In this document: piece by piece, positions 1-24,692 of the stretch | How positions within the stretch are numbered: position 1 is the first letter of the stretch | Layout of the letters: each line of letters starts with the position of its first letter | Notes under the pieces: generated by a model | What the model was told of the DNA's origin: nothing | Database searches by the model: none | Seen by the model: only the letters and a program-made list of their open reading frames with translations | Position numbers and translations under genes: made by a program | From: a virus | Taxonomy: Duplodnaviria > Heunggongvirae > Uroviricota > Caudoviricetes | DNA length: 27,591 nt | Virus record (IMG/VR): IMGVR_UViG_2645727640_000023 | Direction: 5' to 3' (one strand)

Positions 1-570
1 CGCGCCGTTCTGGTTTTTCTGTAATGCGCCAGAAGCCTGATTTACCGTTTCCTGCAAACCGAGGTTTTGGATAAACAGCGGCTTATTGGGAATATCTGCT
101 CCGTTCCGGTCTTTTGCCAGACGGGCACTGGCATTATCCATCGCAATTTTCACCGCTTTTGCGGTGGCTGCCAGCGTTTCACTGGGGCTGTCAGTGGCAC
201 TGGTTAGCTGAACGAGTCCTTTTTTGTTCAGGCTGGCATCATAAATATCCAGATTTTCACGTGCTGTACGCTGTGCTGATGCCCCGGCAGTTTTAATTTC
301 GCTGAGGTTATTTTTTATCAGCAGTGCGTTATTGCTCATAATGGCTTTAATGGACAGTGCAAGCTGGTTTAATTTTGTTTTATCCGGTTGAATACCGGCT
401 TCTTCCAGCGTGTTTAATAACTCCGCCTGCACAATATTAAACCAGTCCATGCCGGGCCATGTGATAACATTATTCCCGTCACCTTCTGAAAACCAGCGAA
501 CGATAGCACTACGCTGGGCGGATACGGGCGGCATGACGGTTACGCCGCTGTCGTTATCAATATAAAACAT
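1..570 (-). CDS. S: Tail fiber protein, N-terminal 190 codons only (gene runs off the window start)
   Basis: ATG at 570-568 overlaps the TAA of the upstream gene (TAATG). My translation of the minus strand stays open to position 1: MFYIDNDSGVTVMPPVSAQRSAIVRWFSEG...KKGLVQLTSATDSPSETLAATAKAVKIAMDNA, containing the SAT..SETLAAT.KAVK motif seen in P2 gpH-type fibers. Absent from the ORF track because there is no stop inside the window. Confidence 0.8.
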   Translation of the reverse strand, partial: MFYIDNDSGVTVMPPVSAQRSAIVRWFSEGDGNNVITWPGMDWFNIVQAELLNTLEEAGIQPDKTKLNQLALSIKAIMSNNALLIKNNLSEIKTAGASAQRTARENLDIYDASLNKKGLVQLTSATDSPSETLAATAKAVKIAMDNASARLAKDRNGADIPNKPLFIQNLGLQETVNQASGALQKNQNGA

Positions 571-8851: not shown

Positions 8852-10339
8852 TTACAGAATGAACTGAACTTGTGCCGCGAAAATGCGGAACTGGTTAATC
8901 AGATTCGGGCCGCAAAGCACATCAAGACGGTCTTTGTCGTCCTTGTTACGTGCCACATACAGCTCCTCTTTGAACGTGTCGAAATCCTCGACCAGTCCGG
9001 CGTTTTCCCATTCTTCAAACAGTGCCAGCAGCTCCGTTTTGATCACGGATGGCGTCACCACGGCCTGACCGGTGGCAAAGCGGGTGCCATCACTTGCCAG
9101 CTTGTAGTTCGGGAATTTCTGCGTGATGCGGGTTCGCAGTGAATAACGCAGATAACTCAGCGTGGCGATGGTATTCACGTTCAGATAAGACGGATCACTG
9201 TCACCGTACTTGTTTGTGCGGTACATCGTGATCATGCGTTCAATCTGCATTTCACCACCATCATTCACGTTAAACGTGGAGATGCCGTCAAACAGCAGCG
9301 CATTACGTTCTGACCAGGTGAAACGATCCCCCACCGCAGGCGGCATTCTTCCGGGCAACGTCAGCGTCTGGAGAGGACGCGCCGGGTCGATGGAAAGCGC
9401 CTGGCTGGCAACGGCACACAGTGTGGCGGCGTACAGATATGACGGTTCCGGTGCACCGGCAATCCCCATACAGGAGATCAGATGATCATTACGACTGACA
9501 CCAAACGTGGAAATATCCCCACACGTGCCGGACAGCACTGTCACAGCAAAGCCATCAGCCTGATTGACCGGTCCCCAGCGTTCCTGCAATTCAGTGCGTA
9601 ACAGATTCAGGTTCGGTTCATCGGTATAGGGCATCACAATATATTTGTATTGCAGATCGCCCATTCCCGCGATACTTGCGCTGATATCCGGGTTGCCATT
9701 TTTACCGGAGGCGGCTTTGAATGCCGTGATAATCCCGTAAGGGGTGGTTTCACCCGCGTAATAGTTCCAGCGCACATCCACGGCAGATAATGCACCCGTA
9801 AATTTTGCACTCAGAACCACATCTGCATGGGTGTCATCATCTCCGCTGTCTGCGCGAACTTCTGCCGTCACCGGTAAATCCGGCTGGCCTTTGATTCGGG
9901 CAACCAGCAGGTCAGCCAGCGCAGCCCCTTTTGTACCTGCTGCGACGGATACCGCCAGTCGCTGACCGGCAATATAGGTCACAAGCGAGCCGTTTTCGCC
10001 TGCCGTTCCTGACAGTGAGATTTCACCGACAGCAGCATTACCGGTGCCGTTTCCCTGCGGGATACACCACAGCTCCGCCACGCGGTTAGCGTTCAGGAAT
10101 GCATCTGCCATCAGTGCCAGCATGGAACCCTGACCAAACGCCGCACTGGCCTGTGAGCCGGAACGGATACGGACAGGCACGTTCGGTGCGGCACTGGCTT
10201 TACTTCCGCTTTGCCCGAACATCAGCACGCGCTGGCGGGGAGCCGGTGTTCCGCTGACGGCATTGCTGTTATCAAATTCGATATACGTCAGAGGAACGCG
10301 AACATCTGACGGGATCGCGTTAAATGAAATATCGCTCAT
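8852..10339 (-). CDS. L: Contractile tail sheath protein
   Basis: ORF track 495 aa ([27 protein letters not shown]...); sheath-sized, followed by the tube gene. Confidence 0.9.
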
Positions 10340-10542
10340 TTCGATTTACTCCGTTTTTTCGGCGCAGCGTCGGTATCATCCGCCGTGTTTTCGGTGCTCC
10401 CGACTTCAACCACATCACCGGCTGCAAGGCGACGTATCCAGAAACTGTTACGGGGCTTTTCTTCTCCCTCCGGAGCCAGTAATTTCATCGTGAGCGGGTC
10501 ACGGATGGCTTTTCCCGCTGCGGGTTTAATTTTCAGCATCAT
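10336..10542 (-). CDS. Small protein upstream of sheath (Mu gp38-like), function unknown
   Basis: ORF track 68 aa with lysine-rich C-terminus; stop overlaps the sheath start (ATGA junction). Confidence 0.65.
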
Positions 10543-15955: not shown

Positions 15956-17474
15956 CCAGACGCCCCCATATATCGGCAACAAAAATGGCACGGGTCAGCA
16001 TGTCGATAAGTTCTGCATCATCCATCTGCGGATATAATGAAGCAGCTTTGTTCATGGCGGCTTCCGGGCCATCTTTCAGCACAGAAAAAATGACGGGTTT
16101 CAGCAGGGGATCAACCGAACGCTGCCAGTCTTCCGGTGAGACGCCCATCCGGTCGATATCATCCTCCTGCGGGATATCTTCAGCGGATAATGCGGCCTCT
16201 TTCTGCGGACCGTTATCCATGACGACCGGTTGAGCAGTAAACACGGCTTCATCACCGACCGGCTGTGGAATATGAAGTTTTTCCTGTATCCAGGAGACCG
16301 GAATACGCATTCCCGCCGCCAGTTTCGGAATGGCGTCAGACAGTGCCGTAATATCACCCGCTTCACTGGTATCAAATACAATGCCCGGCAGGCGGTTAAT
16401 ATCAATGGTGCTGTCACTGTTCAGTGCCAGCAGGGGATAAATCAGGTCACGGTTAATACTGCGGGCAAGCTGGCCCACATCCGCGTTACGGATTTCCCGG
16501 CGAACCTCATCATGCACTTCACCCAGCGACCGTGCACCTTTATCGCCAGCCTCTGTGGTCAGGGTGCCGCCCAGAATGGCTTTTGAAATCGCTTTTTCTG
16601 CCCAGCCAATCATCGCCATAAAGGGATCAGACTGACCATCTGCGGCGCTCTGAAAATCCAGCGTCATCCCCATCGGAATAATGCCACCGGCACGTCGCCC
16701 GATATCCATCACGGCCTGCATCAGCGTGGCTTTTTCGCGGTTTGTGGAGCCGGTCGGATATTTACCGACGCGCATGGGGAGTCCGTAAATTTCCAGGAAC
16801 TCCGCAAAATCACGCACGGAATAGTTTTTAAAAATAAAAGGCCAGATAAGCGTGCGCACAAGGCCATTGGTGCCAACGTACCCGGTGCGGGATTTGGCCC
16901 GGTGCATAAACCAGCCGAATGGTTGCAGCTCCAGCCCGTGATAAGACGTATCACGCAAACGTAATTCGTTCAGATTATCGGGGTTCGCGCAGAACAGCGC
17001 CGGATCGCGATGATGCAGCGCCACCGGCACGCGCATTTTTCCCAGCCAGCCCCATTCAATCTCCTGCATGGAATAACCCTTGAGAATGGCATCACCGGCA
17101 TCAAACAGGGCATCTTCAAACCACGCCGCATCATGCAGATATTCATTCAGCATGTCAGCGTCTTTTTTCTCCTGTGCGCTGGCATCACGTGCCGGAGCGA
17201 TGCGCCATTCCAGCGCCTGAATGGCAAGGCGGCGTTTGCTCAGTTCGGAAAAAAGGTGGGTGTCCTTTTCTTCCATATCAAAGGCCAGGTCAGCCTGTGC
17301 TGTCAGATCACCGCGTTCGGCATCACGCAGCATCTGCGCGGCCCGGTTTGGCGTCACACCACTGGAAGGATGCTCCTGCGTGCGCTTCATGACCATTGCC
17401 AGCTCATCGCTGCGGGTCTGCATTTCATCGTCAAAATCAAACGGCTGCCCGGAAATATCCAGAATACGGCCCAT
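15936..17474 (-). CDS. H: Portal protein (Mu gp29-like)
   Basis: ORF track 512 aa; directly downstream of the large terminase with an ATGA junction at 17474. Confidence 0.9.
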   Translation of the reverse strand: MGRILDISGQPFDFDDEMQTRSDELAMVMKRTQEHPSSGVTPNRAAQMLRDAERGDLTAQADLAFDMEEKDTHLFSELSKRRLAIQALEWRIAPARDASAQEKKDADMLNEYLHDAAWFEDALFDAGDAILKGYSMQEIEWGWLGKMRVPVALHHRDPALFCANPDNLNELRLRDTSYHGLELQPFGWFMHRAKSRTGYVGTNGLVRTLIWPFIFKNYSVRDFAEFLEIYGLPMRVGKYPTGSTNREKATLMQAVMDIGRRAGGIIPMGMTLDFQSAADGQSDPFMAMIGWAEKAISKAILGGTLTTEAGDKGARSLGEVHDEVRREIRNADVGQLARSINRDLIYPLLALNSDSTIDINRLPGIVFDTSEAGDITALSDAIPKLAAGMRIPVSWIQEKLHIPQPVGDEAVFTAQPVVMDNGPQKEAALSAEDIPQEDDIDRMGVSPEDWQRSVDPLLKPVIFSVLKDGPEAAMNKAASLYPQMDDAELIDMLTRAIFVADIWGRLDAAADH

Positions 17475-19129
17475 TACCAGCCCCCTCGTTCAAACTGGTG
17501 ATAATCATCAAAATCATCGTTATCAACATCATCACCACGGTGGCGTGGTGGCAGCGCCTGTATGCTGTCCTCGTCGATAACAAAACCATTCATATAAGAC
17601 GCCCTGACAGCCATACAGAGCGCCACGGCAAAGTCGCCATGTCGTCGGCCTTTACCGCCTTCATCTTTTGTGCGCCCCTTATCAATCTGCGGAATACCTT
17701 TGTCCACCTTGATGTGGAGCAGGTCATCAAGTGTGGTCTGGTGCCGGGCAATCGTGATGTTCTGCGCTTCAAACTCGCCTTTCAGTTTTGGCATCCACTC
17801 CTGATACCAGGATGCGGTCAGATTCACACAGTCGATCATCTCCGGGCCATAAATCAGACGGGCGGCTTCTGCCAGATAACCGCCGTTACCGGTGGCATCA
17901 AATGCAGCGCCGGTAAAACGGGGCAAACGGGACAGAATGAATAAAAGGATTTGTCGCTGCTGGTCATAGGTCACATTACGCAGCTCCACGCGGAAACATT
18001 CGCGTTTGCGTAAGTCAGGAGTGATGGCAAGCGGCACAAACACCGACAGGTCGCCACGGCGTGCAAAGTCTTCGCCCAGTACGTGTTTATTGAGCGGCGA
18101 CAGCGCATCGAGCAACGGGAGCAGCTCCTGTTCACACCAGTCCTGAACGATGCCGTGGCGCATTTGTGGTGTCAGCGATTCAAAATCGTCCGGGGCTTCA
18201 AAACGCAGAATCGGGATATCCCGCGCTGGCGTCATGGCGGCTTCAATCAGCACGCGTGACAGATAAGCGCCCCCGGATTTTTTAGGAATGCAGCCGTATT
18301 CCTCGTCGGCACTCTCTTTATTCGGCGCATTCCGGTACAGGCCATCACGCCAGGCTTTTTCCGCTTCCGGCGACCACGGCTGATTCGTGACGTAACAGAT
18401 ACGTCGGTACAACCCGTCAGCGATGGCATCATCCAGCGTGATGCGGTGAACGCTGTAATCCTTGCGCCCCTCGCGCGCATCCTGAATGTACTGGTTAAAC
18501 AGGTTATCGACGCCGTTATGTGTCGATATGATCCGCACGTTGGCACCCCACATGGTGAGAGCAAAAGCCGCTTTCAGGAGTTCGTCCAGGGCTTCATGAA
18601 ATGCCGCCTCATCAATCACCACGTCCCCCTGCAAACCACGCAGGTTAGACGGACGGCTTGACAGCGCCTGCACCTTAAATCCGCTGTTAGGGAAACGGAT
18701 CATATAAGTGAGGATTTCTTCTTTTTTGTCGCTGTCCCAGAAGGTCTGCTCCCAGACATCAGCCTTTGCCAGCTGGTTAAAGGCGCGGGCAAACAGGGCA
18801 CAGGCGGCGATATATTCCAGCGCCATTTCCTGACGGGAACCCACATAAAAGACGTTGCGACCGCCACGGCGGCGCGGCTTTGCTGCCGTCATGACATTGC
18901 GGCCCGCTTCGGCCCATGTCAGACCGGTACGACGGGATTTTTCAGCGATGCAAATCTGGCTTTCATCCTCAAACCAGCGGCGCTGATAACCCAGGAAAAC
19001 CGGTTCATTGCGGGGCTGTGCTTCACCGATATCGGTCACGATATTCACGCCGAGCAGTTCGGCTTCCTCACGCAGGTTGATTTTGCGGGGCGCATGAAGG
19101 GCTTTAAGGTTGTTTTCTCTGGTGTTCAT
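17474..19129 (-). CDS. Terminase large subunit (Mu gp28-like)
   Basis: ORF track 615 aa is over-extended. Internal ATG at 19129 (MNTRENNLKALHAPRK...) has GAGAGGG upstream and begins 8 nt after the upstream gene's stop, giving 551 aa. Confidence 0.85.
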   Translation of the reverse strand: MNTRENNLKALHAPRKINLREEAELLGVNIVTDIGEAQPRNEPVFLGYQRRWFEDESQICIAEKSRRTGLTWAEAGRNVMTAAKPRRRGGRNVFYVGSRQEMALEYIAACALFARAFNQLAKADVWEQTFWDSDKKEEILTYMIRFPNSGFKVQALSSRPSNLRGLQGDVVIDEAAFHEALDELLKAAFALTMWGANVRIISTHNGVDNLFNQYIQDAREGRKDYSVHRITLDDAIADGLYRRICYVTNQPWSPEAEKAWRDGLYRNAPNKESADEEYGCIPKKSGGAYLSRVLIEAAMTPARDIPILRFEAPDDFESLTPQMRHGIVQDWCEQELLPLLDALSPLNKHVLGEDFARRGDLSVFVPLAITPDLRKRECFRVELRNVTYDQQRQILLFILSRLPRFTGAAFDATGNGGYLAEAARLIYGPEMIDCVNLTASWYQEWMPKLKGEFEAQNITIARHQTTLDDLLHIKVDKGIPQIDKGRTKDEGGKGRRHGDFAVALCMAVRASYMNGFVIDEDSIQALPPRHRGDDVDNDDFDDYHQFERGGW

Positions 19130-19136
19130 AACCCTC

Positions 19137-19727
19137 TCATGCCTTACCCAGCAGCACATCACGGATACGCTGCTCCAGCTCTTCGCTGATGCCATCCTGC
19201 CCGCGCAGTTCTTCACTGACGGCGTTTGCCGCTTCTTCTGCGAATGCCTGGCGGATTTCTTTCTCGCGCCGGTGGCTGGACATTGCCGTGGATTCCAGAC
19301 GCTGTGCCGCCAGCATGGCATTTTTCAGCAGGTCAATATCCACGTCAGATTCCGGGTTTTCGATTTGCCGCATCATGGCCTTAAAAAGCTGGCTGCGGGC
19401 CATTTCCAGAATCAGCTTTGTGGTTTCTCCCATTGGCTTGTCGCCAAGTTCTGCGGTCAGTGCTGACGTCATTTCACGCATCTGTCGCAGGTTATGGCCT
19501 ACCTGCTCGACGTTCGTCGCGTAACGGTTCAGACCGGAACGGGAGAGTTTCATCTCATCCGGCAGGCCAGCGTCTTCAATCAGTGCGTTAATTTCTTCCA
19601 GAATGCGGGCCTGTGGGATCGCTTTATCACGCAGCATTTCATGCAGCGTTTTACGTACGTTTTCCGGCAATAAATCCACTTTTGAAGCCCGGCCCCGTGT
19701 TTTCCTGTCCATCACGCCTCCTGTCAT
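19137..19727 (-). CDS. Terminase small subunit-like DNA-binding protein (Mu gp27-like)
   Basis: ORF track 196 aa; immediately upstream of the large terminase gene. Confidence 0.7.
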   Translation of the reverse strand: MTGGVMDRKTRGRASKVDLLPENVRKTLHEMLRDKAIPQARILEEINALIEDAGLPDEMKLSRSGLNRYATNVEQVGHNLRQMREMTSALTAELGDKPMGETTKLILEMARSQLFKAMMRQIENPESDVDIDLLKNAMLAAQRLESTAMSSHRREKEIRQAFAEEAANAVSEELRGQDGISEELEQRIRDVLLGKA

Positions 19728-20014
19728 GCACGGGGACGAGGACGCTTGACACCGGCAACGCGGGCACGACCTTCTGCCACATCCTGACCTCGGGAGGTCA
19801 GCGTTACGACATAAAAGCCGCGCAGGTTTTCCACGGTGACCAGTTGCTGCTCTGCCAGCCAGTCAATCTGGCCGCGAACCACATCGCGGGAAACGTTGTG
19901 TCCGTATGCATCCAGACAGTCCTGAAGAATGGATTCGTTTGCTTCGTTATTGCAGTCCATCAGGGAACGCAGGATGACCAGACGACGGTCTTCGGTCAGA
20001 ATATCGTTAATCAT
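19724..20014 (-). CDS. Hypothetical protein (Mu gp26-like)
   Basis: ORF track 96 aa; ATGA junction with the upstream gene at 20011-20014. Confidence 0.65.
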   Translation of the reverse strand: MINDILTEDRRLVILRSLMDCNNEANESILQDCLDAYGHNVSRDVVRGQIDWLAEQQLVTVENLRGFYVVTLTSRGQDVAEGRARVAGVKRPRPRA

Positions 20015-20310
20015 GAATTACTCCGGTTTACTGCGTTTTCAAGCAGCAGCTCCAGTTGATGGGAAAATGACTGCACCCGCTGGGACAGCACCCGGATATC
20101 GCCGGACAGCTCTGCAATTCGCAGGCGCATTTCGTGTACATCTTCTGTGCCAGGGATGCTGGCGTAGCGGGTTTCCATTTCGGTCATCCGGTTTTCAAGA
20201 CGCTCCACACGCTCAGTGCTGGCAAAACTACGACGCATTGCCCAGACGGCCCCACCGGCCACAACAGGCAACAGGTAAGGCCATAACGCTAAAACTGAAA
20301 TCAAATCCAT
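20011..20310 (-). CDS. Small membrane protein in the lysis region (Mu gp25-like)
   Basis: ORF track 105 aa is called from GTG 20328; in-frame ATG at 20310 (MDLISVLALWPYLLPVVAGGAVWAM...) abuts the upstream TAA (TAATG), giving 99 aa with one N-terminal transmembrane segment and a coiled-coil tail. Confidence 0.7.
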   Translation of the reverse strand: MDLISVLALWPYLLPVVAGGAVWAMRRSFASTERVERLENRMTEMETRYASIPGTEDVHEMRLRIAELSGDIRVLSQRVQSFSHQLELLLENAVNRSNS

Positions 20311-20504
20311 TATTCTGCTCCACGGCACCAGTGGCAGTAGTTCGCCATCGGCTGCTGTCTCAGCACATCAGGCCGCAGCTCACGACCGCAACCGGCACAC
20401 AATACAGGCGGGTCATACGCCGCCGGGCGGGGAATATCACGGGTATCCCCCTGCCAGAGTTCAGCGAGCAGCAGCGCCACCGCCCGGTTCTGGTCTTCGT
20501 TCAT
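20310..20504 (-). CDS. Small zinc-ribbon protein (Mu gp24-like)
   Basis: ORF track 64 aa with C-x2-C ... C-x2-C (CAGCGRE...CHWC); AAGGAAAG Shine-Dalgarno upstream of ATG 20504. Confidence 0.7.
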   Translation of the reverse strand: MNEDQNRAVALLLAELWQGDTRDIPRPAAYDPPVLCAGCGRELRPDVLRQQPMANYCHWCRGAE

Positions 20505-20802
20505 AAATTTCTTTCCTTCGGGTCTCCTGTTCCCGGACTGATGCCTTGTCGCGGTTGCACTGCCCGAGCGCCATCAACAGGTCAGCATTCCAGAGAAGGG
20601 ATGCTCCCCACGTCAGGGGCTGTGGCATGGGCGGAACGGGCGTTGCTTCCGTCAGTTCTGCATCAGTTTCGGGCAGGATCACCACCGATGGCACGGGTGC
20701 GTTTTTCGAGTTCCCGCAACCTGTCAGCAGCAACGGCAGGCACAGGACGAGTGCTGCAATTGTCACCGGTAATGGCGGTTGTAATTTTTTGTTTTGCATC
20801 AT
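20461..20802 (-). CDS. Outer-membrane spanin (o-spanin lipoprotein) candidate, overlapping the i-spanin gene in another frame
   Basis: Internal ATG of ORF 20461-21009 at 20802 gives MMQNKKLQPPLPVTIAALVLCLPLLLTGCGNSKN...: signal peptide plus lipobox LLTGC, Pro-rich mature part, C-terminal Cys. The true 3' end is uncertain because the frame reads on into gp24. Confidence 0.6.
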   Translation of the reverse strand: MMQNKKLQPPLPVTIAALVLCLPLLLTGCGNSKNAPVPSVVILPETDAELTEATPVPPMPQPLTWGASLLWNADLLMALGQCNRDKASVREQETRRKEIYERRPEPGGGAAAR

Positions 20803-21049
20803 GATGTTCTGTCTCGTCTGCCAGCCGCGCGGCACGATTTGCGGCACGGATAGTGGAAAATACCTGCATCGTCTGTTCCTGACCGTGTAACAACCATTCA
20901 GCCGTGTTGCGGGCCTGTTGCTCCGTCTGTAATTCACGGCGCAGCGTCTGGTTATCGTGGCGGGTGCTGTCCAGCCTGTGCCACAACACCCCGGACAGAA
21001 CGGCGGCAAACACGGCTGCCAGCAGTAAACTTTTACTGGCGAAGGTCAT
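20663..21049 (-). CDS. Inner-membrane spanin (i-spanin, Rz-like) candidate
   Basis: ORF track 128 aa: N-terminal transmembrane segment (LLLAAVFAAVLSGVLW) followed by a charged coiled-coil region; immediately downstream of the endolysin gene. Confidence 0.7.
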   Translation of the reverse strand: MTFASKSLLLAAVFAAVLSGVLWHRLDSTRHDNQTLRRELQTEQQARNTAEWLLHGQEQTMQVFSTIRAANRAARLADETEHHDAKQKITTAITGDNCSTRPVPAVAADRLRELEKRTRAIGGDPARN

Positions 21050-21551
21050 CCGCCCCCCTGATATTCCAGATAGCCATTTCCACTTCGCGACGGTTCATCA
21101 GTCCTTTCCATTTATGGCCTGCGGCAAACACCCAGCGGGCCATCTGGTCACGCGCTCCGGCGTAATCACCGGCATTGAGTTTTTTCAGCAGCGTTGATTT
21201 ACTGAATGCGGTAACACCGGTGTTGAAAATAAACGTTGCCAGCGCCGTTTTCTGATATGGCGTCAGCGGCACCCTGACAAGACGATCGATTGCCGCATAA
21301 ACCGGTTTTAAATCACCGTCGAGAAGAGCCATACACTCCGCATGGCTGTAACGGCGCATTTCGATATCCGGCCCGGTATGTCCCACACAGACCGTAAGCA
21401 CACCGGCAATATCGCGGTAAGGCATATAAGCGATATTTTCCAGATGGATCAGAGACTGACGGGTCATTTCCTGATAACCACCCACACCGCCACCGGCAAT
21501 CGTTGCCGCCAGCAGTGCGGCTTTCAGTTTTTTGGGTATCCCCGCCATCAT
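21033..21551 (-). CDS. lys: Endolysin, lysozyme-like with N-terminal signal-anchor-release-type hydrophobic segment
   Basis: ORF track 172 aa (MMAGIPKKLKAALLAATIAGGGVGGYQEMTRQS...), the first gene after the C gene as in Mu. Confidence 0.85.
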   Translation of the reverse strand: MMAGIPKKLKAALLAATIAGGGVGGYQEMTRQSLIHLENIAYMPYRDIAGVLTVCVGHTGPDIEMRRYSHAECMALLDGDLKPVYAAIDRLVRVPLTPYQKTALATFIFNTGVTAFSKSTLLKKLNAGDYAGARDQMARWVFAAGHKWKGLMNRREVEMAIWNIRGADDLRQ

Positions 21552-21620
21552 GCTTCCCTGAAAAAATGCTCTGATGGCAGTCTAAAAAATCAGATGGCAG
21601 GTGCGGGATTATGGTGACAG
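21552..21620 (-). promoter_or_regulatory. Candidate C-dependent late promoter for lys (P_lys)
   Basis: Minus strand CCATAATCCCGCACC (plus 21593-21616), about 55 nt upstream of the lys ATG, shares CATAA(C/T)CCC and CCCGCACC with the region upstream of gene I. Confidence 0.5.
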
Positions 21621-21645
21621 GAAATAACCGGCAGGATGCCGGTTA
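21621..21645 (-). terminator. Hairpin terminator directly after the C gene
   Basis: Minus strand CCGGCA-TCC-TGCCGG followed by TTATTTCC; the plus strand also has a T-rich tail (TTATTTCT), so it could act in both directions. Confidence 0.5.
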
Positions 21646-22065
21646 TTTCTGGCTTTCAGGTGAGAACAGATCAGGCTGATGACGTCGTGTATGCAGCTTT
21701 CTCTGGCGGGCAATAATCTGGTAGATCTGCGGCTGGGACAGGCGATACTGGCGACGCAGTTCTTCCATGTTACGACCATTGAACTGGCAGTAAAGCAAAT
21801 CGTCGCGTAACGCGGTCAGGATCGTATCGCCGCAGGGGATGTAAAACTGCCGCCCGCCCAGAAAACAGGACAGGGCAACGGCCTGTTTACGGGCAAGCTC
21901 ACGGGGATTGCTGACGTTCTGGCGTTTCAGTTCGTTTTCCAGAACATCAATCAGATCAACCACCGAACGGGGCCAGCGTGATTCCAGTTCCGGGGCCGGG
22001 ATGTTATCAATATGTCCGATTAACTGGCGAATTGCCGGATCGTGTTCAAATAAATCATGCTGCAT
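21643..22065 (-). CDS. C: Late transcription activator C (Mor/C family)
   Basis: ORF track 140 aa with C-terminal helix-turn-helix; resembles the Mor ORF in this window (shared ...GG.QFYIP.G... / ...GGQVYIPRGQ... and ...FNGRN..EL...Y motifs); GGGGGAAAAT upstream of ATG; hairpin terminator right after the stop. Confidence 0.85.
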   Translation of the reverse strand: MQHDLFEHDPAIRQLIGHIDNIPAPELESRWPRSVVDLIDVLENELKRQNVSNPRELARKQAVALSCFLGGRQFYIPCGDTILTALRDDLLYCQFNGRNMEELRRQYRLSQPQIYQIIARQRKLHTRRHQPDLFSPESQK

Positions 22066-22077
22066 ATTTTCCCCCGG

Positions 22078-22197
22078 TTAACAGACAGAAAGATACACCA
22101 CGGCACTGATGGTTATCAGAACCACAAGGGCAATCACTTTTATCGCACTCATCAGCGTGGACGGCCCGAAACATTCATCACTGAATTTTCTGTACAT
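22078..22197 (-). CDS. 39-aa tail-anchored membrane peptide (holin-like accessory candidate)
   Basis: Not in the ORF track (under 60 aa). My translation: MYRKFSDECFGPSTLMSAIKVIALVVLITISAVVYLSVC; AAGGGG 6 nt upstream of ATG 22197; fills the gap between the membrane protein gene and C. Confidence 0.45.
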   Translation of the reverse strand: MYRKFSDECFGPSTLMSAIKVIALVVLITISAVVYLSVC

Positions 22198-22206
22198 GGT
22201 GCCCCT

Positions 22207-22569
22207 TTACCCGAACAGACGAGCGCGAAAACGAAAGGAGAGCCAGAACGTCAGCAATCCGGCCAGCGCCCAGATGACATGCTCAGGACCCGTTTTCAGT
22301 TGAGACGTTGCCATCACGGCTAATCCCAGCCCGGACAGACTCCCCAGCCAGGTCAGAGGCCAGACGAACCGGGCAAAATGTTCAGGCACCCGGCAGCTCA
22401 TTATCAGCGCATCCAGACAATCAGCGGCAACACATAAAGCAACACTGAAAACCGAGGCACAGCAAAACATCAGCGCGCGCCAGCCACAAAACAGACTTAT
22501 CCACAATAACAGCGCCAGTAATACCACCGATAAAAAATCAGGCCACTGACGAGCAGAACGCTCAGACAT
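22207..22569 (-). CDS. Multi-pass small membrane protein (holin/lysis-regulator candidate)
   Basis: ORF track 137 aa; preferred ATG at 22569 (MSERSARQWPDF...) has GGGAGA 7 nt upstream; at least three hydrophobic segments. Confidence 0.65.
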   Translation of the reverse strand: MSERSARQWPDFLSVVLLALLLWISLFCGWRALMFCCASVFSVALCVAADCLDALIMSCRVPEHFARFVWPLTWLGSLSGLGLAVMATSQLKTGPEHVIWALAGLLTFWLSFRFRARLFG

Positions 22570-22780
22570 AATGTTTCTCCCTGTAAAGCAGGCAATGATG
22601 AAGAATTTCCGGCATATCAACTGACTGCCAGCCTTTCATGTAATAACTGCCGTGGGTGCCATCATGACCGGTATAGTCGCGGGGCGCAGGCCGTGGCCCA
22701 CCGGCGACACGGTGCAAAACCTCCTGACGCAGCCGCTCACGTCTGCCAAGATGAAAGGATGCATTCCAGCCTTTACCCAT
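22562..22780 (-). CDS. Possible first ORF of the middle operon (72 aa), doubtful
   Basis: ORF track 72 aa in the mor-C interval; begins only about 50 nt after the terminator palindrome, so it may be promoter/leader sequence rather than a gene. Confidence 0.25.
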   Translation of the reverse strand: MGKGWNASFHLGRRERLRQEVLHRVAGGPRPAPRDYTGHDGTHGSYYMKGWQSVDMPEILHHCLLYREKHYV

Positions 22781-22857
22781 GATGATTTCCCCCGGTACGG
22801 TTATTCATCACAGGATATTGAGGACGTAAAAAAAGCCGGATTAACCGGCTTTACTGT
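22781..22857 (-). promoter_or_regulatory. Expected location of the Mor-dependent middle promoter Pm
   Basis: In Mu, Mor activates Pm upstream of C. This is the only sizeable noncoding stretch between mor and C, and the C-distal hairpin at 21628-21642 would end a transcript of about 1.2 kb. The -10 element is not clearly assignable. Confidence 0.4.
22825..22855 (-). terminator. Intrinsic terminator palindrome immediately downstream of mor (early-transcript terminator); may double as an activator-binding dyad for the middle promoter
   Basis: Minus strand reads AAAGCCGG-TTAAT-CCGGCTTT followed by TTTTTTT-ACG; an 8-bp perfect stem with a U-tract, beginning 3 nt after the mor stop. Confidence 0.6.
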
Positions 22858-23247
22858 TTACAGAAGTGAGGGCTGGTACTGGCGGTATTTCAGCCGTCGC
22901 ATCCGGCGAATGGCCTTGTAAACCGTATTGAAAGTGACACCATAACGGGTGGTCAGTTCGCTGACGTTGCGACCGTTAAAATCATTCCAGATACGCAAAT
23001 CCCGAATCAGCGAGTCCAGAACCTGACCGCGTGGAATGTAGACCTGACCGCCGCCCAGATGCTTACAGATAGCCACAACAATCTCCAGTGAATGGGCAGG
23101 ATCAACACCCAGCCGGGACAATTCCCCGCGCAGTAAATCGTTCAGCTCCGCCAGCAGTGCCGGAAAGCGTGACGTATCCTCTGCGGGATTGTCAAGATGT
23201 GCCAGGATGGTGTCATCCTGCAAATCACCAAATAAATCTTCCGTCAT
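22858..23247 (-). CDS. mor: Middle operon regulator Mor (Mor/C family transcription activator)
   Basis: ORF track 129 aa (MTEDLFGDLQDDTILAHLDNPAEDTSRF...GGGQVYIPRGQVLDSLIRDLRIWNDFNGRNVSELTTRYGV...); paralogous to the C ORF; ATGA junction with gemA; strong terminator palindrome directly downstream. Confidence 0.9.
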   Translation of the reverse strand: MTEDLFGDLQDDTILAHLDNPAEDTSRFPALLAELNDLLRGELSRLGVDPAHSLEIVVAICKHLGGGQVYIPRGQVLDSLIRDLRIWNDFNGRNVSELTTRYGVTFNTVYKAIRRMRRLKYRQYQPSLL

Positions 23248-23795
23248 TGTGCCATCCTCCGTGTCTTTCTGGCATGGGCATAAGCCGCCGTCATGGCATC
23301 ATAGCCGCGCAGTTCACGCCCGGACGGACTGACTGGCAACGGAAGCCCGTGACGGGAAAAGGCTTCACGAATACAGCGGATATGCCACTGCTTGAGAGTT
23401 TCGAGAACAATCAACAGGGTGTCGCCATGACACCACGCCAGCGTGGAAACACCCTGTCCGCCATTACGTTTCGCCGTCAGGCGCTGAACATATTTATCCA
23501 GCGCCACATCACCGCCATCGGTAATAAAACCGTCTTCTGCCATCTGCTGCCAGACTTTGTATACCTTCTCGCGGGGCGTGACATGCCCCTTAAAGCGGCG
23601 ACGTGGATGTTTATTCAGCTTCTTAAAGCCGCGTTCTTTCATGGCATCGAGCACCTGTTCCAGTTGCGTAACCGTCAGCTCGCGGCAACTGATTTTGCCC
23701 GTTTTCTGCATCAGAAAAGCTCGGTAAGTGTCGTCGTCGAGTTGTAGCTCCCGACGGGCGACATGGATTAATTTAATCAGGGATGTGCGATTCAT
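23244..23795 (-). CDS. gemA: GemA-like early protein (Mu gp16 family)
   Basis: ORF track 183 aa (MNRTSLIKLIHVARRELQLDDDTYRAFLMQKTGKISCRELT...); immediately upstream of mor as in Mu. Confidence 0.85.
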   Translation of the reverse strand: MNRTSLIKLIHVARRELQLDDDTYRAFLMQKTGKISCRELTVTQLEQVLDAMKERGFKKLNKHPRRRFKGHVTPREKVYKVWQQMAEDGFITDGGDVALDKYVQRLTAKRNGGQGVSTLAWCHGDTLLIVLETLKQWHIRCIREAFSRHGLPLPVSPSGRELRGYDAMTAAYAHARKTRRMAQ

Positions 23796-23864: not shown

Positions 23865-24131
23865 ATGGAAAATAATGTACAACCTTATGATGTTGCAGGT
23901 TATGCGATTGCATCAGCACTGGTGCGCCTTCTGGTGAAGAAGGCGATCATCACCGCAGAAGAGGGCCAGGCCATTTTCAGCTCTTCAGCAGAGATTTTAA
24001 AAGATGCGCCTGCAATAAGAACAAGCCGCCGCGAAAACATGCAACTGTCAAAGATCATGGAAGACATTATCAGTTCGTTAGACCCAGATGCTGACGGATC
24101 TCAAAAGCCTCAAACACATGAGCGTCAGTAA
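23865..24131 (+). CDS. Opposite-strand hypothetical protein (88 aa)
   Basis: ORF track 88 aa; GAGAGGA 5 nt upstream of ATG 23865; G-initial codon bias typical of real genes; occupies an otherwise empty 274-nt minus-strand gap; 3' end overlaps the 3' end of the convergent 100-aa gene by 62 nt. Confidence 0.45.
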   Translation: MENNVQPYDVAGYAIASALVRLLVKKAIITAEEGQAIFSSSAEILKDAPAIRTSRRENMQLSKIMEDIISSLDPDADGSQKPQTHERQ

Positions 24132-24372
24132 CAATATCCTGGTCTGATAACCCCAGCCTGCGGCGGATGTACTCCTCGCGGGCTGTTTCATTTTGCAGTG
24201 CCACTACTGTTTCCAGACGATTCATTTCGCGGTTGATAATGTCACGGACTTCTCTGGCGGTGAGATTATGCTTAATACCATATTCAACGATAGCGCGAAC
24301 ACGTTCCAGCATCCCTTTTTCAGCCATGACGTTATCAATATTAAGGGGAGTAAATTTATCTTCATTGTTCAT
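24070..24372 (-). CDS. Hypothetical early protein (100 aa)
   Basis: ORF track; ATGA junction with the upstream gene at 24369-24372; predicted helical, no motif I recognise. Confidence 0.65.
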   Translation of the reverse strand: MNNEDKFTPLNIDNVMAEKGMLERVRAIVEYGIKHNLTAREVRDIINREMNRLETVVALQNETAREEYIRRRLGLSDQDIVTDAHVFEAFEIRQHLGLTN

Positions 24373-24692
24373 TTTGCGGCCCTCAGAATAAATTCAGGAT
24401 AAAATTTCAGACTCATTTGCCGTAACACATCCAGTGCAGCAACGGCTGCTGATTTATCGTTGCCATCAGCAATAGCGCGGAGATTTTCAATAATCCAGTG
24501 AGGACTCAGTGACTCAGCAATAATGCCAAACCGGTACGCCATGACCTCATCAATAGCTTTTTCATGAGACGTCTCATATACAAAATTCACAAAGTCATGC
24601 ACTTCTTTTTTCGGCAAACCACCGGCAATCAGCAGGGCGGCAAGCTCTTCTGATTTTGAAAATACACCATTATTCATATCACTCACCTTCAC
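24369..24692 (-). CDS. Hypothetical early protein (107 aa)
   Basis: ORF track; overlaps the upstream zinc-ribbon gene by 14 nt. Confidence 0.65.
   Translation of the reverse strand: MKVSDMNNGVFSKSEELAALLIAGGLPKKEVHDFVNFVYETSHEKAIDEVMAYRFGIIAESLSPHWIIENLRAIADGNDKSAAVAALDVLRQMSLKFYPEFILRAAK

Follow-up and report, generated by a model that had tools for sequence, protein, structure and literature searches.

Positions 19724-22569 of the 27,591-nucleotide stretch analysed here (IMG/VR virus record IMGVR_UViG_2645727640_000023, a member of the Caudoviricetes; the whole stretch is referred to hereafter as the window) had been described, in a reading made from the sequence alone, as a lysis region with a membrane-tethered endolysin, an overlapped spanin pair and several small membrane or zinc proteins. 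Comparison with reference phages showed that this feature is real and correctly described, yet already known: it is a near-identical copy of the best-studied holin-less lysis system. Judged by its sequence, the window belongs to a Mu/D108-type transposable phage, and 19724-22569 represents the Mu-type lysis region plus genes of the middle operon. [quoted passage not shown] The individual roles would carry over from Mu to the variant in the window by near-identity. Every role assignable from sequence here has already been tested at the bench in Mu, and the value of the present check is therefore corrective.

Identity of the region and its endolysin, spanin and releasin genes

When 19500-23300 (3.8 kb) was compared with phage records by megablast, D108 matched with 98.9% and Mu with 98.8% identity, each at 100% coverage, and the whole window was collinear with Mu from about 4.8 to 32 kb. 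The curated GenBank record of Mu (AF083977) was projected onto the window and the projected genes were translated (GQ357916 was used for D108), which identified genes 19, 20, C, 22, 23, 23.1, 24, 25 and 26. The open reading frames (ORFs) named in the sequence-only reading were all present on the minus strand, which is the coding strand of the window, where that reading had placed them or very nearly so; the genes for the small and large terminase subunits come after gp26. Proteins gp18, gp19, gp24, gp25 and gp26 were 100% identical to their Mu counterparts, while two substitutions each were found in gp22, gp20 and C and five each in gp23 and gp23.1. The Mu record names the products at the homologous positions SAR endolysin, i-spanin, o-spanin and releasin. 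We saw nothing in the window that conflicts with a Mu-type explanation of lysis.

Gene 22 (lys; 21033-21548, minus strand) encodes a predicted SAR endolysin of 171 aa; the mechanically called ORF begins one ATG earlier, at 21551. The protein matched Phage_lysozyme (PF00959, E = 2.3e-37) and the PHROG endolysin family, and the catalytic triad E37-X8-D46-X5-T52 is present in its putatively periplasmic lysozyme domain. The N-terminus is short, basic and predicted to be cytoplasmic, with K6, K7 and K9 preceding or flanking the SAR segment (residues 8-24, LKAALLAATIAGGGVGG), which is Gly/Ala-rich and weakly hydrophobic (mean Kyte-Doolittle hydropathy, KD, 1.32). Relative to Mu, gp22 carries V15A and S78G (169/171 residues identical); A15 was the commonest allele among 17 IMG/VR relatives, and K6, K7, K9, E37, D46 and T52 were all retained. 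The tethered endolysin of the sequence-only reading thus reads as a SAR endolysin of the Mu type. Mu gp22 has been found to show SAR behaviour, being freed by the pinholin of phage 21 (S21-68) and by chloroform, and a 22::cam insertion blocks Mu lysis (Chamblee et al. 2022, mBio 13:e00813-22, PMC9239132).

The products of genes 23 (20663-21049, minus strand) and 23.1 (20461-20802, minus strand) have the features of a two-component spanin of overlapped architecture. The predicted i-spanin, gp23 (128 aa), has an N-terminal transmembrane domain (TMD; residues 5-23, mean KD 1.79), a putative periplasmic helical domain and a single cysteine, Cys98, and matched the Rz-like spanin family phrog_214 with E = 6.4e-35. 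The predicted o-spanin, gp23.1 (113 aa), matched Pfam LysC (Rz1-like, E = 7.7e-15) and phrog_3001/456. Its lipoprotein signal contains the lipobox LLTG/C29 with Gly at +2 (no Asp), and the 85-aa mature part includes 10 Pro and Cys82. The two genes overlap out of frame by 140 nt, 23.1 starting inside 23 and extending 202 nt past its end, so that the overlapped pair with an LLTGC lipobox was rightly recognised from the letters. In Mu, amber mutants of 23 and 23.1 give the spherical-cell phenotype of spanin mutants and are complemented by lambda RzRz1; with these amber alleles it was also shown that loss of the spanins blocks lysis when Mg2+ stabilises the outer membrane (PMC9239132).

Gene 25 (20011-20310, minus strand) is the fourth gene after 22, in a window that also contains Mor, GemA, C and Mu morphogenesis genes. 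Its 99-aa product is identical to the Mu releasin and matched PF10805 (DUF2730) over its full length, including the TMD (E = 2.5e-13; 50.4 bits against a gathering cut-off of 24.9 bits). The single N-terminal TMD (about residues 5-23, KD 1.55) is followed by AMRRSF at the membrane boundary, of which R26 and R27 were invariant in 15 homologues. The predicted topology is N-out/C-in, with about four periplasmic residues and a cytoplasmic tail of 73 aa that contains 12 acidic residues, 9 Ser and 2 His. A word-indexed protein search with gp25 returned 23 close relatives and did not reach the distant type II/III DUF2730 proteins described in PMC9239132. What had been proposed from sequence as a candidate regulator of endolysin release, with a single TMD and a coiled coil, is therefore the experimentally defined releasin. 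The TMD is borne out; the coiled coil is plausible, being compatible with an AlphaFold2 model built from a 15-sequence alignment, which is all-helical at 10-49 and 55-98 and of low confidence (mean predicted local distance difference test score, pLDDT, 62.5; predicted template modelling score 0.24), but it is not established.

The genetics of Mu assign endolysin release to gp25. In a 25::cam Mu lysogen the normal lysis at about 40 min does not occur and the cells lyse only at about 3 h, a defect that chloroform rescues; gp22 expressed alone from a plasmid is not lytic, yet gp22 and gp25 together are sufficient for lysis at about 50 min (PMC9239132). Changing K6 or K7 of gp22 to Ala makes gp25 unnecessary, whereas K-to-R changes have no such effect, and gp25 also aids the release of unrelated SAR endolysins; the authors coined the term releasin for it (PMC9239132).

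Trigger of endolysin release

Carried over from Mu, the sequence of events would be as follows. Mor would activate the middle promoter Pm, leading to expression of 18, 19, 20 and C, and C would activate the late promoter Plys and so expression of 22, 23/23.1, 24, 25 and 26 together with the packaging and head genes downstream. Exported by Sec, gp22 would accumulate in an inactive form tethered to the inner membrane as a SAR endolysin, its dibasic K6-K7 N-terminus locking the weak SAR helix in the bilayer. The type I membrane protein gp25 would be needed for the SAR domain to exit the membrane; released gp22 would refold and then degrade the murein, and the gp23/gp23.1 spanin complex would subsequently disrupt the outer membrane. 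Late transcription and the release of the endolysin would set the timing; depolarisation of the membrane would not, and no holin would be involved. The sequence-only reading had left the trigger of lysis as not evident. This is true of the sequence alone, but a published answer exists, namely that gp25 is required to release gp22 and that timing lies at the level of the endolysin.

The same reading had suggested that a multi-pass membrane protein and a 39-aa peptide encoded upstream of C could supply holin function. These are gp19 and gp20. Gene 19 (22207-22569, minus strand) encodes a 120-aa inner-membrane protein, identical to Mu gp19, in which a 17-residue Kyte-Doolittle scan gave hydrophobic stretches at about residues 8-60 and 98-114; its four-TMD topology is that of the Mu GenBank annotation (AF083977). 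Gene 20 (22078-22197, minus strand) encodes a peptide with a single C-terminal TMD (residues 19-39, mean KD 2.53) that differs from Mu gp20 by I16M and N17S and belongs to phrog_19823, a family without assigned function. A Kyte-Doolittle scan of all ORFs of at least 30 aa on both strands of the window gave credible coding-strand TMDs only in gp19, gp20, gp23, gp23.1 and gp25, in agreement with the report that genes 19, 20, 23 and 25 are the only Mu genes encoding TMD proteins (PMC9239132). Other hydrophobic ORFs were considered as holin candidates and rejected because they overlap known Mu genes in antisense or out of frame; among those set aside, the ORF at 17437-17589 is an alternative frame of the acidic repeat that ends the terminase gene, and that at 24078-24191 lies inside the gp14 homologue.

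According to the account in Chamblee et al. (PMC9239132), Samanta et al. (2021) had earlier proposed gp19 and gp20 as a holin-antiholin pair. That such a pair, with four TMDs and one, triggers release of the SAR endolysin has some appeal, since each is a small membrane protein whose gene lies no more than 1.5 kb from that of the endolysin and their predicted topologies resemble those of some holin classes (PMC9239132), but we find the proposal scarcely credible. Both are middle genes, and C, a terminator and Plys stand between them and gene 22; they are not on the late transcript with the endolysin, as gp25 is. In Mu, expression of 19, 20, 25, 19 and 20 together, or a construct with all the candidates produced no lethality after dinitrophenol (DNP), and DNP postponed the lysis of induced lysogens instead of triggering it; the study concluded that Mu has no holin (PMC9239132). 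Genes 19 and 20 are dispensable, as Chamblee et al. report from Mathee & Howe (1993) (PMC9239132). In addition, gene 19 is missing from many close relatives, and genes 18-20 are missing from distant prophages that carry 22-26 (see below). Neither gp19 nor gp20, nor gp25, matched a holin family in Pfam, PHROGs or NCBIfam, a negative that counts for little given the great diversity of holins. We conclude that gp19 and gp20 are not holins; they are non-essential middle-operon membrane proteins without a demonstrated role in lysis. The region is best labelled Mu genes 19-26, and gp19 and gp20 should not be offered as holin candidates. The statement that no canonical holin gene adjoins the endolysin gene was accurate, and accords with Mu having been published as holin-less.

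A cryptic pinholin-like action of gp25 itself, freeing gp22 through depolarisation of the inner membrane, also needs to be considered, given that gp25 is small, late-expressed, encoded in the lysis operon, endowed with a single TMD and required for SAR release, and that SAR endolysins are usually partnered by a pinholin (PMC9239132). We judge it very improbable. Expression of gp25 is harmless to growth and viability even under DNP challenge, and the effect of DNP on Mu lysis is to delay, not to advance it (PMC9239132). The protein has only about four periplasmic residues beside its one TMD, and the bypass of gp25 by K6A or K7A points to the charged N-terminus of gp22 as the problem, rather than to a requirement for losing the proton motive force. 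At the other extreme, gp22 might have no dedicated trigger and escape spontaneously, with gp24, gp25 and gp26 being unrelated morphogenesis or packaging proteins that are merely co-transcribed. SAR endolysins in general do release spontaneously at a low rate, the 25::cam lysogens do lyse eventually, gp26 adjoins the terminase genes, and DUF2730 proteins occur beside non-SAR endolysins as well (PMC9239132); moreover, distant relatives retain DUF2730 although their endolysins have no KK pair. Nevertheless, loss of the normal lysis time in 25::cam, its rescue by chloroform and the dependence of plasmid-borne gp22 on gp25 leave this explanation with hardly any chance of being right, and for gp25 it is already refuted in Mu.

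Release of a SAR endolysin by gp25, as in Mu, is thus retained as the explanation for the window, and several points weigh against it. The V15A substitution lowers the hydrophobicity of the SAR segment slightly (KD 1.32 compared to 1.46), and V15A or S78G could alter the kinetics of release in this set of alleles. The predicted structure of gp25 is too poor to inform on mechanism, and no later paper in the searchable literature was found to explain how releasins work. The authors considered that gp25 might be a protease, might rely on an unknown host partner, or might serve as a transient channel or as a chaperone that shields charge (PMC9239132). A specific protease is disfavoured because gp25 works on unrelated SAR endolysins, and a permanent pore is disfavoured because gp25 has no effect on growth. 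Tentatively, the releasin may act non-covalently and without sequence specificity, easing a charged or dibasic N-terminus across the bilayer; we favour this option as possible and would not put it more strongly.

Transcription units, neighbouring genes and natural variation

The segment 19724-22569 straddles two transcription units: it takes in part of the middle operon and part of the late lys operon. The compact lysis cassette of the sequence-only reading therefore holds for the anatomy of the ORFs but not as a single cassette, since 19, 20 and C lie in the Mor-dependent middle operon and a terminator and Plys separate them from 22. Pm, the Mor-activated promoter that drives 18, 19, 20 and C, was projected from Mu 9163-9233 to 22795-22865 (minus strand), together with the terminator hairpin after mor; the region 22773-22873 differs from Mu by one substitution, and a terminator-like hairpin was found at 22852-22832. 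Gene 18 (22562-22780, minus strand) encodes a 72-aa protein identical to Mu gp18 and assigned to phrog_2121, a family without assigned function. The hairpin that ends the middle operon, AACCGGCATCCTGCCGGTT with a T-rich tail, was projected from Mu 10383-10406 to 21622-21645 (minus strand) and is identical in sequence to that after C in Mu and D108. It is followed by Plys, the C-dependent promoter at the start of the lys operon (21559-21625, minus strand, projected from Mu 10403-10469), in which two substitutions relative to Mu were found. A simple sigma-70 scan found no consensus promoter at Plys or Pm; this is not evidence against them, because activator-dependent promoters are expected to lack one.

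Gene C (21643-22065, minus strand) encodes the 140-aa activator of late transcription that switches on Plys, identified by its match to the Mor family (E = 9.3e-34) and by the Mu annotation. Its two substitutions relative to Mu, T138S and P139Q, are C-terminal, a few residues past L133. Residues L133 and L5 of MuC were mutated as beta-clamp-binding motifs in a 2026 PNAS paper (PMC12867686), and both are present in the C protein of the window.

Two further genes of the late operon flank gene 25. Gene 24 (20310-20504, minus strand) encodes a soluble protein of 64 aa, identical to Mu gp24, with the arrangement CxxC-x17-CxxC. The four cysteines (C36, C39, C57 and C60) did not vary among homologues that are 27-59% identical and encoded at the same place in the genome, which supports a metal-binding fold. 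The zinc-ribbon label given to gp24 in the sequence-only reading rests only on these residues: they are indeed there, but no significant match was found in Pfam, NCBIfam or PDB sequences. The spacing of the cysteines resembles that of DksA/TraR-type zinc fingers, but an assignment to that family was rejected: with the threshold relaxed to E <= 10, Pfam produced no more than sub-threshold hits to NinF and DUF7575, and searches of NCBIfam and PDB sequences came back empty. In the plasmid reconstitution gp24 was not needed for gp22 release, because Mu gp22 and gp25 alone cause lysis. Gene 26 (19724-20014, minus strand), which lies upstream of and adjoins the terminase small subunit gene 27, encodes a soluble, 96-aa winged-helix-like protein identical to Mu gp26 and annotated there as "winged HTH domain-containing". 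It matched the NCBIfam VpaChn25_0724 family (E = 4.9e-38); Pfam winged helix-turn-helix matches were weak only, and no match was found among PDB sequences.

Among 5426 complete E. coli genomes, 44 held a match to the segment 19724-22569, in every case in the chromosome and in at most three places per genome; identity reached 99.9%, in the chromosome of one E. coli O126:H45 (NZ_CP069677.1, 3120786-3123631). In one IMG/VR contig (L007, IMGVR_UViG_2690316161_000025) all 12 proteins from Mor to gp27 were identical to those of the window. Gene 20, genes 22-26 and the IPKKLK motif of gp22 were retained in all 17 close IMG/VR relatives, and gene 19 was absent from 11 of these 17 (L006, L008-L010, L012 and L014-L019) and from the isolated Shigella phage SfMu (L021); where it was absent, gene 18 directly adjoined gene 20. 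Gene 19 is thus a presence/absence polymorphism among very close relatives of Mu. Its absence explains the partial coverage with which SfMu matched 19500-23300 and probably also the partial-coverage hits of the Yersinia vB_YpM phages and PhiR68_1.

In six distant prophages, from Erwinia, Kluyvera, Apirhabdus and an Enterobacteriaceae genome (L022-L027), the gp25 homologue is 65-69% identical. Their genes still run in the order C, SAR lysozyme, i-spanin, o-spanin, four-Cys protein, DUF2730, gp26 and gp27, and no homologues of 18-20 were found in any of the six. Even at this distance the gp24-like and gp26 genes still adjoin the releasin gene, and gp26 is 85-88% conserved, above the conservation of gp25 itself. 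The N-termini of their endolysins (L022:2626-3270; about 2750-3270 in L023-L027) read IPKSLK, IPRSLK or LPKTLS and have no K6-K7 pair, and DUF2730 is retained in 6/6 despite its absence, which recalls the observation of Chamblee et al. that DUF2730 can be found next to non-SAR endolysins (PMC9239132). Because DUF2730 is kept without the dibasic pair, while K7A alone frees Mu gp22, a role beyond neutralising the K6-K7 lock of gp22 is conceivable: DUF2730, perhaps with gp24 and gp26, may form part of a gp24-gp25-gp26 module that times lysis or couples it to another late process, e.g. packaging. We regard this as unlikely; if true, the module would add a new level to the control of lysis without a holin.

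Further peculiarities were seen in the same prophages. In Erwinia tracheiphila (L022), translation in the endolysin frame from the preceding stop codon shows a run of (KSP) repeats upstream of the SAR domain. Where Mu has genes 18-20, between gemA and C, three of the four distant prophages for which ORFs were listed carry an ORF of 130-153 aa with a signal-peptide-like N-terminus (L022:1581-1988, L026:1685-2146 and L027:1752-2144). Frameshifts split the endolysin gene of Kluyvera genomosp. 3 into three ORFs (L023:2745-3272), and the terminase small subunit gene (gp27) is split in Erwinia tracheiphila (L022), Kluyvera genomosp. 3 (L023) and Apirhabdus (L027), which suggests decaying prophages or assembly errors.

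Over its length the window is a mosaic of Mu, D108 and SfMu: positions 34-23834 are 99.1% identical to D108, and positions 36-24375 are 98.0% identical to Mu. A stretch of some 290 nt within the semi-essential early region (24376-24667) is missing from both Mu and D108 and was found with 99.6% identity in SfMu and the Yersinia phages vB_YpM_5/6; this segment is covered by an ORF of 107 aa (24369-24692, minus strand) that matched phrog_1988, a family without assigned function. At the other end (window 2-74), it is the S' side of the invertible G segment (Mu 34965-34998), and not the S side, that the first 35 bases match; taken against the Mu reference, the G segment is thus in the G(-) orientation, on the evidence of only about 34 bases past the inverted repeat.

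Comparison with known lysis systems

The closest counterpart is the Mu lysis system itself (22, 23, 23.1 and 25), which the window resembles in gene order, overlaps, promoters and terminator. Between the two, gp18, gp19, gp24, gp25 and gp26 are 100% identical and the remaining proteins 96-99% identical, only point differences separate the lysis regions, and every Mu residue with a mapped function is present in the window (gp22 K6, K7, E37, D46 and T52; gp23.1 Cys29). D108 is 98.9% identical over the region; V15A of gp22 is the D108 allele, so that S78G is the only difference from D108 gp22, and S78G occurs in neither Mu nor D108. SfMu and, judging by coverage, several Yersinia phages differ from the window in having no gene 19.

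The canonical pinholin/SAR-endolysin/spanin systems, S21-R21-Rz-Rz1 of phage 21 and that of P1 with Lyz, likewise combine an endolysin tethered by a SAR helix with a two-component spanin. Unlike those cassettes, the window and Mu have no pinholin or holin gene, and release of the endolysin would instead depend on a non-holin DUF2730 membrane protein and the dibasic N-terminus of gp22. Mu differs from them also in that depolarisation of the membrane, rather than triggering lysis, postpones it.

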